From NCBI GenBank assembly GCA_030390025.1, contig CM059448.1, forward strand, positions 4,588,001 to 4,652,000: 64,000 nucleotides of DNA, written 5' to 3'. This DNA comes from Squalus acanthias. Taxonomy: Eukaryota. Both the position numbers and the translations under genes were made by a program. Under the pieces are notes generated by a model, which was not told where the DNA came from, did no database searches, and worked only from the letters and a program-made list of their open reading frames with translations. This document shows positions 15,181 to 37,127 of this stretch, in pieces. Position 1 is the stretch's first letter. The number at the start of each line of letters is the position of its first letter.

Positions 15181-15859
15181 TGTGAACAGTGGGGTTCAGC
15201 TCAGACAGATGTTAGGGAGAGGGATGGAGTCAGTGGCTAGGGAACGGAGTTTGTGGCGGTTACCGAAAACAATGGCTTCGGTCTTCCCAATATTTAATTG
15301 GTGAAAATTTTTGCTCGTCCAGAACTGGATGTCAGACAAGCAGTCTGACAATTTAGAGACCGCGGAGGGGTCGAGAGAAGTGGTGGTGAGGTAGAGCTGG
15401 GTGTCATCAGCGTACATTTGGAAACTGACAGTGTTTTCAGATGATGTCGCCAAGGGGCAGCATGTAGATGAGAAATAGGAGGGGGCCAAGGATAGATCCT
15501 TGGGGGACACCAGAAGTAACGATGCGGGAGCGGGAAGAGAAGCTGTTGCAGCTGATTCTCTGGCTACGATTAGATAGATAAGAATGGAACCAGGCGAGTG
15601 CAGTCCCACCCAGCTGGATGACGGTGGAGAGGCGTTGGGAGAAGGATGGAGTGGTCAACCGTGTCAAAGGCTGCAGACAAGTCAAGAAGGACGAGGAGGG
15701 ATAGTTTACCTATGTCACAATCACAAAGGATGTAATTTGTGACTTTGATGAGAGCCGTTTCGGTACTGTGGCAGGGGCGGAAACCGGATTGGAGGGATTC
15801 ACACATGGAGTTGCAGGAAAGATGGGCACGGATTTGGGAGGCGACAACATGTTCAAGGA

Positions 15860-16102
15860 ATAACAACAGAAAACGCTGGAAAAACTCAGCAGGCCAGGCA
15901 ACATCCGTGGAGAGAGAAACAGAGTTAACGTTTCAGGTCGAAACCCTTCGTCGGAATTCGTCGGATGGGTTCCGACGAAGGTCTTCGACCTGAAACGTTA
16001 ACTCTGTTTCTCTCTCCACAGATGTTGCCTGGCCTGCTGAGTTTTTCCAGCGTTTTCTGTTGTTATTTCGGATTTCCAGCATCCGCAGTATTTTGCTATC
16101 GT
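15860..16102. mobile_element. Penelope pLTR head-to-head foldback with two hammerhead-like motifs
   Basis: ~97-bp inverted arms (15859-15956 / 15970-16067), 35-nt tail, 14-bp TSD AACATGTTCAAGGA at 15846-15859 and 16103-16116. Confidence 0.85.
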
Positions 16103-16399
16103 AACATGTTCAAGGACTTTGGAGAGGAAAGGGAGGTTGGAGATGGGGCAGTAGTTTTCGAGGACGGAGGAGTCAGGGGTTGTTTTTTTGAGAGGGGTGA
16201 TGACAGCAGATTTGAGGGAGAGGGCGACAATACCTGAGGAGGTCTAATAGGTCTTTAACATTAAAAAGGGGTTTGATAGGGTAGATGTAGAGAAAATGTT
16301 TCCACTTATGGGGCAGTCCAAAACTAGGGGTCATAAATATAAGATAGTCATTGATACTGCAGAAGATATAATTCAGGGGGTTTACATGTGTTAAAGCGA

Positions 16400-16650
16400 G
16401 GCCATAAAAGATCCCATGGCCACTATTTTGAAGAAGAGCAGGGGAGTTCTTCCCGGTGTCCTGGCCAATATTTATGCCTCAACCAACATCACTAAAAAAG
16501 ATTATCTGGTCATCATCATATTGCCGTTTGTGGGATCTTGCTGTGGGCAAATTGGCTGCCGCGTTTCCTACATTCCAACAGTGACTGTAAAGTGTTTTGG
16601 GATATCTTGAAGTTGTGATAGGTGCTATAGAAATGCAAGTCTTTCTTTAT
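16400..16650 (+). mobile_element. SacSINE1-like DeuSINE, 3' half
   Basis: AAAAGATCCCATGGC... through the GCAAGTCTTTCTTT tail. Confidence 0.8.
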
Positions 16651-16699
16651 GTAGTTGTATCAAATTAAAATAGTAAAGATCTGACTCCTCCCATGTGGT

Positions 16700-17047
16700 G
16701 CTGGAGGATATGGACAAGGATGATCCCGAGCTCGGTATCCAGCCTGTGCTGCGTTAGTTTGGCAGCCGTGGAAGTACGGTTGGTACAGCTTGCCTCAGTG
16801 CCAATGGGGCAGTAAGGGGACAAACTCAGGTGGGTGGCGCAGGTTCCTGCTCCTGATCGCCACCTTGTGACATTTGCTGGAAGGTGCCGGGACAGCAGGT
16901 GGGAACTCTATGACAGTCTACGCTCACCGTCTCGGCTCACACGTGAAGAATGGGTTCACTGGATGAGGTGCTGTAGGGCAGCTGGCCCCTGTGGGTCCCG
17001 TATCCCAGTGAGCAGTCTGTGCCCTCGAGACAGAGGGGGGGGAAAAT
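16700..17047 (+). mobile_element. Old unclassified SINE-like repeat
   Basis: Shares GGCTCAC..GTGAAGAATGG and CTCCTGAT motifs with diverged copies at ~26700-27010 (-), ~34945-35130 and ~36445-36740. Confidence 0.5.
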
Positions 17048-17673
17048 CTGACCTCTTGTCAATTTATTGAAAATATTTATTTCCAATCCTGGATATTATG
17101 AGCAGAAAGAGCTATGTCAAGATGTAATAGACAGGGTAATCCTCACAGTGCGTTTCACTGGGATATCCATCAATCAACTGACAGTGTCATTACCCCCCCA
17201 ATACGTCCCATTCAGGTAGAGAGAACTAATGTCCTGAATCAGATTTAATGAACCTCGGATCCTCTCTGACCAGCGATCTTGATTTACATCCGGGCTTTAA
17301 TTTCTACCCAGCGTTCGAGATTGAGGAAGCAGCTGGGCCGCTGAAGGGAACCGAAACTTCCTGAGCAGCTGAGAGTGCACGATTACCCCTTGCACTGCCA
17401 ATCTCAGCTTCCATCTGCCACATGCTTTATTTCCTCTCCCTCTCTTTAAGGTCTGTTTACATCCTGCACCGTTCTCCAGCCAAAGGGAGGGGCAGTCAGG
17501 CCACCGCTGCCCAGGCACCTCTCACTCCCGCTTCATTTTTATGGGCTATTTCTTGGGTTTCCCCACTTTTCTCCTGTAATTCTTGTTTGACACCTCTGCC
17601 CCAGAGCGAATGGCTTGCTCCCTAGTTGCCGACGCCCTGGCCGCTGGGAGATCTCCAATTTTCCCCAACTTAG

Positions 17674-35181: not shown

Positions 35182-35352
35182 TTTGTATAGCCTGTCCTTC
35201 TTGCATAGCTCCACGCTCTGCTTCCAGCGGTTGTTGCCCTTGAACAAATACGCACCAATTCGTCGGAACTCAATCAACTCGTGTTTCTCAAGCCGCTGAG
35301 CCAGGGAGATATTATCGAAGTTGTCATATGCATCTATGGATGTGCGAAGAGC
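35182..35352 (-). CDS. CLTC: CLTC exon (~29; 171 nt)
   Basis: [24 protein letters not shown]...KKDRLYK; AG/GT. Confidence 0.95.
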
Positions 35353-35741
35353 CTAAGTAACAAGGATACATTTTTGTAACTTTCAGTATAACCAGACGAC
35401 AGTTAAATGAATCTCCCATCTACACACGAAAGGCTGTTCCCATCCACCTGCATCATATCCACAGCAAGAACCGAATTGACCAGGACCAACTCCACCCACT
35501 TACTATCATAGGGTACAGCCAGACGCTTCAGGAATTCCCACATCTACACAGTTAGTTAAAAATTTGCCCCACAATCCTGAAACCCTTTACACTATTTCTG
35601 CTCTTCAACCATCTTTCTAGGTCGTAAAGCTCAATCTGCTCGTTTTATCTAATCAAGTGAAACTGTGGTATATGGGACAGTAAACTGTTGCAATAATGCA
35701 GCTTCTTTTGTGAATACCTCCGGATTCTCAGCCTCACCCAC

Positions 35742-35852
35742 CTGGTAGTCCTCCTCTTGGATGAAGAGGTTATTCAGTGATTCATTCACAGACTTGTTGT
35801 TGTTGCTTTGTACAGAGCGCAGGTAGGGTTTAACCAGATTCAGCTGCTTAAC
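35742..35852 (-). CDS. CLTC: CLTC exon (~28; 111 nt)
   Basis: [15 protein letters not shown]...EEDYQ; AG/GT. Confidence 0.95.
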
Positions 35853-36845
35853 CTGAAAATCAAGACAAGTTTGAAAGTTTGCCACTAATCATTTAAAGAG
35901 AGTTGTACCCCTTTATCAGACCAGCCACAGCACAGGGGCAGGTGCTCTAAATAATTTGACAAAACAGTTAAATACCAGATTAAATCATTCGATACGTGAA
36001 AAATCAGAATACCATGCAATTCTGAATAGGATTTTCCAACAGTGATTCAGGATCACCTTACTGGCAGATAAGGTCCAAGGGGCTACAAATAGCCAGGATC
36101 TAATTGGTCACTGTGGCAGTGCTACGTAGCAGGATACAATTTGCTCGTGTTCTTGGCAACTGTTTTATCAAAGCCAATGCAAGACGCCAAGGTCTGAAGG
36201 ATCCACCTTCAAAACATTAACCTATCTTCTTGCAAAGTAACTAAAGACAAGCATATTTAACCAGGTCTCATACTTGCATCAATGTTCCCTAGATATCACC
36301 TTTGCCACTCCTCAACTTTACCCATCAAGTTTCAACTACCTACATTACACTATCTCGTACTACAGTGTGGCAGGGAAAATGGAAGACCCAATATAAATTA
36401 GCAAGTCAACCCATAACTTTCCCCCCACTGGCTCAAGTGAGTTTACTCACCAAGTAGGCAAATCATAAGACCAGAAAGTCCCAGGTTCAATTGCTGATAT
36501 GTATTAAGTCAGCTGGGTAGGGGTGCTACAACTGACCAGCATCCTTGGATCAGAATGGGTAAAGTGAACGAGAATTCTTCCCCCTTCTAGAAGAGTGGGT
36601 TCACATTGGAGCGTGGACAGGATCAGGCTTAAGCACGACACCCCAATTGTCAAACAACCTGCTGGCGCTTGCCAAGGCTCTCAAGTGAGGCACTGACAGT
36701 CATGGAACTGTACCTAATCAAGGGGTTAATGCACTGAGGAAGTGAAGATACACAAATGGCCATTATATTTTACCCTGAAATCTAAATGCTGCCAGCTTAG
36801 ATTTCAAACCACCACAGGCTAATTTGAGTCCTAAAGTAATTCAAA

Positions 36846-36929
36846 CGTAAAACAGAAAATGCTGGAAACGAGCTGGTTTTTCAGCATTCTCTTTCAAGAT
36901 TTCTAGTATCCACAATATTTTGCTTTTGC
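36846..36929. mobile_element. Miniature, internally deleted Penelope pLTR foldback
   Basis: AAAACAGAAAATGCTGGAAA ... TTTCAGCATT arms plus pLTR tail; 8-bp direct repeat AATTCAAA at 36838-36845 and 36930-36937. Confidence 0.6.
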
Positions 36930-37127
36930 AATTCAAATATCTTGACTATGGGAAGTGATCTCAGCTACTGACTTAGAAAAATGTTACATACCCCAAAAAG
37001 GATTCTTCAATTAGTTTAACCAAAGCAGCCACTTTACTAGTAGCACAGATTTGTTTAGATGAAGCACCACAAGTTTATGTATTGATATTGTCATTAGAAA
37101 ATTGCCAAACAGTCTTGCAGCGAGTAC

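Follow-up and report, generated by a model that had tools for sequence, protein, structure and literature searches.

What kind of event leaves two copies of one retroelement end in opposite orientation between target-site duplications (TSDs), with a terminal tail on only one of them? This question is raised by a 64,000-nucleotide stretch of the genome of Squalus acanthias (GCA_030390025.1, contig CM059448.1, positions 4,588,001 to 4,652,000), the whole of which is called the window here. Six insertions, A (14424/26-15181), B (15860-16102), C (19937-20922), D (36846-36929), E (10669-11395) and F (5185-5312), were all found at the positions given in an initial annotation. They are 5'-truncated ends of Penelope-like elements (PLEs; C probably so) with hammerhead-like cores. 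A, E and F are linear, whereas B, C and D are pairs of inverted pseudo-long terminal repeats (pLTRs), B and D belonging to family 1 and C to family 2. The geometry of these pairs is an already-published hallmark of PLEs. As to its origin, the chances are in our view slightly better than even that reverse transcriptase (RT) started at two fixed sites, that both target strands were primed and that the two complementary DNAs (cDNAs) were joined head to head.

Results

One tail per inverted pair

At B, C and D the initial annotation had described fold-backs between TSDs of 14, 12 and 8 bp with a tail on a single arm. This arrangement was confirmed; at D it is approximate only, because this genuine but decayed unit has a deletion that spans the short-end point (where a tail-less arm ends) of its tailed arm. 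A one-sided tail was thus present in 3/3 inverted units (p = 0.125 for 3/3). The gap from the end of the inverted arm to the TSD was 35 nt in both B and C, and the short arm overlapped the other TSD by 1 nt (B) or 2 nt (C). Measured from the common base, the tails were 35 nt in B, 37 nt in E, 32 nt in F (plus 2-3 nt common to its TSD), approximately 33-35 nt in D and 35-37 nt in C, with ends that were ragged over about 5 nt. The 40 nt first reported for C have to be reduced. In all three pairs, the sequence that directly follows each TSD 3' end has cDNA polarity; it begins at the tail end for one TSD copy and at the short end for the other. Counted from A9 of the hammerhead, B has its two sites at nt 90 and 125, and C has them at nt 75-77 and 114. 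Two defined 3' positions separated by about 35 nt, as proposed, agree with the pair of RT start sites reported for a Poseidon PLE and are hence already published (Frangieh et al., 2024; PMC11167929).

TSDs of 8-14 bp flank 5/6 insertions and are variable in length, as in endonuclease-containing (EN+) PLEs; those of the linear copies are 10 bp in E (10659/11396) and 9 bp in F (5176/5313). Among 2000 random junction pairs, chance direct repeats of at least 8 nt occurred in 2.7%, of at least 9 nt in 1.25%, of at least 10 nt in 0.5%, of at least 12 nt in 0.05% and of 14 nt in 0/2000. The B TSD is a true duplication, because its sequence occurs once in the paralogous host repeat 6739-6822. Approximately 6 nt of the E TSD also match the element, and the homology with A extends to 11403.

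The linear copies E and F have both a tail and a TSD, as annotated, and A has neither a tail nor a direct repeat of more than 5 nt at its ends. Since the host reading frame continues across the A junction if one TT is counted once, the TSD of A is 0-2 bp (TT) and no target was lost. A paralogous empty site for A was not found within the window. The two host open reading frames (ORFs) around A, which we take to be a fragment of a long interspersed nuclear element (LINE), matched no Pfam family. A and B lie 680 nt apart inside one decayed host repeat. They are 94-96% alike, with common letters that are absent from E and F, to which B is 86-89% alike; this suggests two subfamilies.

A reading in which the tail repeats, in tandem, the unit before it was rejected as not general: the longest direct match was reached by 7 (E), 46 (B), 240 (F) and 614 (C) per 1000 shuffles, and the motif-to-end distances were unequal (14-16 vs 22 nt). 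In family 1 the motif TTTCCAGC precedes the short end and recurs once within the tail (10690-10731, minus strand; 16043-16085, plus strand). This match is 11 nt long in E (7/1000 shuffles) and 8 nt in B (46/1000) and was not seen in F or C. The C tail has a 9-nt complementarity to the pLTR upstream of the short end (19937-20010, minus strand; 26/1000 shuffles). Complementarity between tail and pLTR is 5-8 nt in family 1. Folding of the whole region was no better than that of shuffles.

Further one-tailed fold-backs were not found in the window: among 10 local inverted hits only the arms of B and C abut a TSD, in a scan that is too insensitive for the decayed D. A family 1 profile search of the window gave no extra copy at E < 0.1 besides the known ones and the inner part of C, and pattern scans for such loci gave 0 in viral contigs and 0 in metagenome contigs. 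Approximately 370 nt upstream of its own hammerhead, each C arm (20277-20424, minus strand; 20474-20615, plus strand) holds a decayed pLTR end that resembles family 1 (profile E = 9e-9 and 4e-6) and includes a degenerate hammerhead core and a stretch like a tail. This end possibly goes back to an old insertion nested in the source element, or else to a pLTR with two hammerheads.

The short end across the family

Assembled contigs from 4 runs of 3 organisms (two runs from the best-matching organism) were compared with 10600-10899 at 80% likeness, and 37,988 to 77,977 contigs were aligned per run. The counts given here refer to the rows listed, namely 24 of 1355 loose-end rows and 15 of 199 joints. 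The largest loose-end row was at 10708 in 4/4 runs (1104, 723, 1206 and 1273 contigs); with the neighbouring positions 10709-10711 it comprised 1666, 1390, 1741 and 2090 contigs per run. The letters beyond the 10708 ends are unrelated and A/T-rich (agreement 0.38-0.40). A tailed class that ends at 10690-92 and continues with the far part of the tail was seen in 3/4 runs (328, 610 and 405 contigs). At the other private letters of E (10756, 10780 and 10816) no comparable loose-end row was present. Direct head-to-tail joints back to 10708 were found in 22 contigs (3 joint rows). Because the short end is seen at these joints and in solo copy A as well, it is not special to inversions. At position 10762, 354-512 contigs per run depart from E, and their continuations are shared and related (agreement about 0.5), which suggests another subfamily whose hammerhead region differs.

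The initial annotation had cast the two positions in a particular form: one start was the true 3' end of the RNA and the other lay about 35-40 nt inside it, tail loss being tied to inversion and TSD status. That exactly one tail is present in each inverted pair agrees with this form, as does the presence of a TSD in 2/2 tailed and 0/1 tail-less linear copies. However, these counts are too small (p = 0.33, n = 3, for the TSD table, and the value given above for the pairs), the tail ends are ragged, and the short end also occurs outside inversions (in A and at the direct tandem joints), which weakens the tie between tail loss and inversion. Moreover, both start sites lie inside the RNA in the one PLE assayed, in which added 3' sequence did not shift the main product (PMC11167929). 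The RNA terminus as one of the two positions was therefore not borne out, and this version as a whole is improbable.

Strand-change joints were found at 10751-10753/10786-10788 (35 contigs in 4 rows, all 4 runs), 1-2 nt from a CATC/GATG complementarity beside stem II of the hammerhead. This cluster may mark a place where fold-back is frequent, or a mini-hairpin that has been amplified. One opposite-strand joint row in run X1, which may stem from the source sample, had a summed depth of 402 over 4 contigs, vs 12-37 on the unique flank. Such a depth would fit a pre-formed palindromic mini-element that spreads as a unit and makes some of the hairpins, whose geometry would then be inherited and not made at each insertion. 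Yet B, C and D are unlike in family, arm length and centre, and every short arm abuts its own TSD. We regard this origin as very improbable.

Origin of the second arm

In the favoured mechanism, the GIY-YIG domain would nick the target in a staggered fashion, 8-14 bp apart as judged from the TSDs. Two fixed positions inside the RNA, separated by about 35 nt and downstream of the hammerhead, would each be able to serve as an RT start, as was found in vitro for the Poseidon PLE. A single start at the far site would give a tailed linear copy (E, F) and a single start at the near site a tail-less copy (A), whereas a near-site restart on the end of a cDNA would give a direct tandem. Starts on both nicked strands, one per site, would yield head-to-head cDNAs and in this way an inverted pair with one tail between TSDs (B, C, D). 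The anatomy, the TSDs, the accumulation of ends at the near site and the existence of a tailed class are observed. We infer the enzymatic steps, and the priming of the second arm from the target instead of by folding back, from the TSD 3' ends that run into cDNA polarity, the site distances and the Poseidon biochemistry. A process that makes hairpins only would not give solo copy A and the direct joints, which supports the reading with two start sites.

Several points weigh against this reading. The biochemistry that supports it is from a different clade (Poseidon), and neither an RT gene nor a complete element was found in the window, the copies of which are truncated. The tail could not be explained as a stable stem-loop, being no more stable than shuffles in 4/4 cases (z = -0.25, -1.14, -1.3 and -0.45). 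In PAc, the Poseidon PLE of the green anole, start-site use in vitro was the same on both strands (PMC11167929); from a model with no strand difference exactly one tail per pair is not predicted. The contig ends and joints are a small part of all rows. In addition, E differs from 96% of the depth at 10707 and its private letters clip alignments at 10708 and 10690-92, so that ends between about 10703 and 10708 are pooled and the near site is resolved to approximately 5 nt. The far site is outside the rows listed, and the depth across the tail rises gradually, without a step. Finally, the centre of C, where a hairpin closes on a 7-nt loop, and that of B, which holds a short templated repeat, are as expected of self-priming.

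These centres would suit a fold-back with endonuclease resolution, in which a single cDNA that begins at the tail end turns back on itself and serves as a DNA template, and in which the copy stops or is cut about 35 nt short of the primer and joins the second strand. Junction palindromes of EN+ PLEs have been read as self-priming (Arkhipova et al., 2013; PMC3846280), which also counts against two separate starts, and the tail was called most likely a product of resolution mediated by the endonuclease (EN) (Craig et al., 2021; PMC8557442). The B arms have rare letters in common and are 96.9% alike, vs 86-96% to other copies, and the strand-change joints described above cluster near a 4-nt complementarity. 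However, two RNAs from a single source locus would be just as likely to yield rare letters in common. A 12-nt insert is present only in the tailed arm of C, though it is possibly a later change, and an extra step is needed for solo copy A and the direct tandems at the same site. A fold-back origin must be taken seriously but is in our opinion less likely than the two-start-site reading, which is retained.

Identity of the elements

The initial assignment to PLEs is supported by a GIY-YIG domain above the Pfam cut-off, the pLTR, the tail, the hammerhead motif and the TSDs. Pfam GIY-YIG scores were 24.5 bits for E and 23.7 bits for A (cut-off 22.6), in family 1 only. In A and E the order is CxxC before YIG, GIY-YIG domain, stop, 3' region and pLTR. 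Inverted pLTRs are seen in B, C and D and direct joints in the contigs. That family 1 is a PLE is nearly certain, whichever mechanism holds. The GIY-YIG fragment had 5831 relatives at E up to 0.001. Among the ten best and longest of the 150 listed, RVT_1 was matched in 7/10, 4 of them above the cut-off; one of the seven (P0003) looks chimeric by eye. DKG and YIDD were seen by eye in four full-length relatives. A CX2-6CxxC linker was present in 54/84 relatives with enough upstream sequence among the 150 listed, 66/150 having been dropped for no core match or short upstream length. Neptune and Nematis are marked by a CX2-5CxxC linker between RT and EN (PMC8557442). Family 1 is probably Neptune-type, although the window copies start downstream of the linker position and the linker does not separate Neptune from Nematis. 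The best Atlas matches (0.95) were eukaryotic clusters, and 2 of the 3 listed have GIY-YIG on 51% and 42% of their members.

A motif scan revealed an intact hammerhead core with stem II at 15083, 20842 and 20056, that is in both families and upstream of the ends; the core is altered in B, E and F. Rfam gave no hammerhead family in 4000-38000. Its seven matches there, all below the gathering scores, were mostly microRNA models fitting hairpins and were rejected as chance. With the family 1 EN, tblastn matched only A and E in the window, C (family 2) being without a coding part. Family 2, with one insertion in the window, may be assigned to the PLEs from its hammerhead motif, tail and TSD.

Genomic setting

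The window contains a PTH2 ORF at 3288-3821 (plus strand; Pfam E = 5e-47), which faces the exons of a clathrin heavy chain at 33527-61445 (minus strand). Presumably, the human PTH2 and clathrin heavy-chain genes have the same tail-to-tail arrangement. Five insertions (A, B, C, E and F) occupy the interval between these two genes in the window, and D is located between clathrin exons. At the window start (308-1115), proline-rich repetitive open frames on both strands are probably a GC-rich tandem repeat.

Coordinates of the insertions and their parts in the window
Feature	Position	Strand	Remarks
B, left copy of 14-bp TSD	15846..15859		single copy at paralogous empty site 6739-6822
B, tail-less inverted pLTR arm, family 1	15860..15956	-	ends at short site; 95/98 identical to other arm
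B, centre, 12 nt	15957..15968		9-nt repeat of arm end + 3 nt
B, tailed pLTR arm	15969..16067	+	variant hammerhead core CCGACGA
B, tail, 35 nt	16068..16102	+	
B, right copy of 14-bp TSD	16103..16116		
C, left copy of 12-bp TSD	19925..19936		
C, tail, 35 nt	19937..19971	-	37 nt counting 2 nt common to far TSD
C, tailed arm, family 2	19972..20445	-	hammerhead core at 20056; 12-nt insert near centre, not in other arm
C, 7-nt loop at fold-back centre	20446..20452		approximate position
C, tail-less arm	20453..20922	+	hammerhead core at 20842; 97% over 172 nt and 99% over 136 nt vs other arm
C, right copy of 12-bp TSD	20923..20934		
D, left copy of 8-bp TSD	36838..36845		
D, tail-less inverted arm, family 1	36846..36868	-	20/20 identical to E 10710-10729, E = 2.9e-5
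D, decayed tailed arm	36875..36929	+	tail motif 36897-36929; between clathrin heavy-chain exons
D, right copy of 8-bp TSD	36930..36937		
A, linear 5'-truncated copy	14424..15181	+	GIY-YIG fragment to 14793, 3' region, hammerhead core 15083; short-site end; no tail; 0-2 bp TSD
E, linear copy	10669..11395	-	GIY-YIG fragment (stop at 11068), pLTR, 37-nt tail 10669-10705, 10-bp TSD
F, linear pLTR stump	5185..5312	+	32-nt tail, 9-bp TSD

Discussion

The pattern as stated repeats a published hallmark and has little weight by itself; its value lies in the material that it offers for counting. The abundance of the family, with thousands of copies per genome, allows tail/tail, tail/short and short/short pairs to be counted and the extents of the arms to be compared. 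Such counts could separate two-strand priming from fold-back, a step left open in PMC11167929 and PMC8557442. In the main text of PMC11167929, as far as available, the inverted pair was not derived from the two sites and tail combinations per pair were not counted. The literature searched, outside the scope of which most subscription and older Penelope literature falls, contained no count of tail combinations per inverted pair and no twin priming applied to PLEs, and PMC12602865 had no occurrence of tail, pLTR, inverted or pseudo.

A stricter form of the two-start-site reading would be that, in insertions with two rounds of synthesis, the second is confined to the near site, whether its primer is the other target strand or the end of the first cDNA. 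We offer this form as a doubtful conjecture. If it is true, inverted pairs with exactly one tail would be far commoner than expected from independent choice, and this excess would reflect, in the genome, an asymmetric dimer of the PLE protein.

In the twin priming of LINE-1, both target strands prime cDNA, which leads to an inversion between TSDs, and the two segments mostly cover different parts of the RNA. The pairs described here resemble this in the inversion between TSDs and, on the favoured reading, in the priming of both target strands, but differ in that one and the same stretch is copied in each arm, from a fixed start. For EN+ PLEs, inverted pLTRs, a 31-bp tail optionally on one inverted pLTR, TSDs of 8-10 bp and junction palindromes were described (Arkhipova et al., 2013; PMC3846280), as was a tail of 30-40 bp that in many cases is found at a single end (Craig et al., 2021; PMC8557442). 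Inverted 5'-truncated pLTRs, a one-sided tail, TSDs and junction palindromes are in common with those elements. In contrast, the units here are no more than stumps, 84-986 bp long, that lack an RT gene, are from a vertebrate and have TSDs of up to 14 bp. The minimal hammerheads described in pLTRs combine a CUGANGA core with stem II and GAAA but lack a real helix III, and pairs 100-700 bp apart on opposite strands were also noted (PMC4209133). At the level of the motif these features are found in the pLTRs studied here, with core changes in B, E and F and without an Rfam match.

A close functional parallel is PAc, whose protein cuts and extends both target strands and is, by prediction, dimeric (Frangieh et al., 2024; PMC11167929). 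Two internal RT start sites found in vitro lie at either end of a tail of about 34 nt, approximately nt 85-119 when counted from the AUG at the beginning of stem II, and the genomic ends coincide with these sites (PMC11167929). Likewise, in the insertions studied here two sites bound the tail at a similar distance behind the hammerhead. Unlike PAc, which belongs to the Poseidon clade, family 1 has relatives that are, for the most part, probably Neptune-type. This suggests that the two-site rule of the Poseidon element extends to Neptune-type elements.

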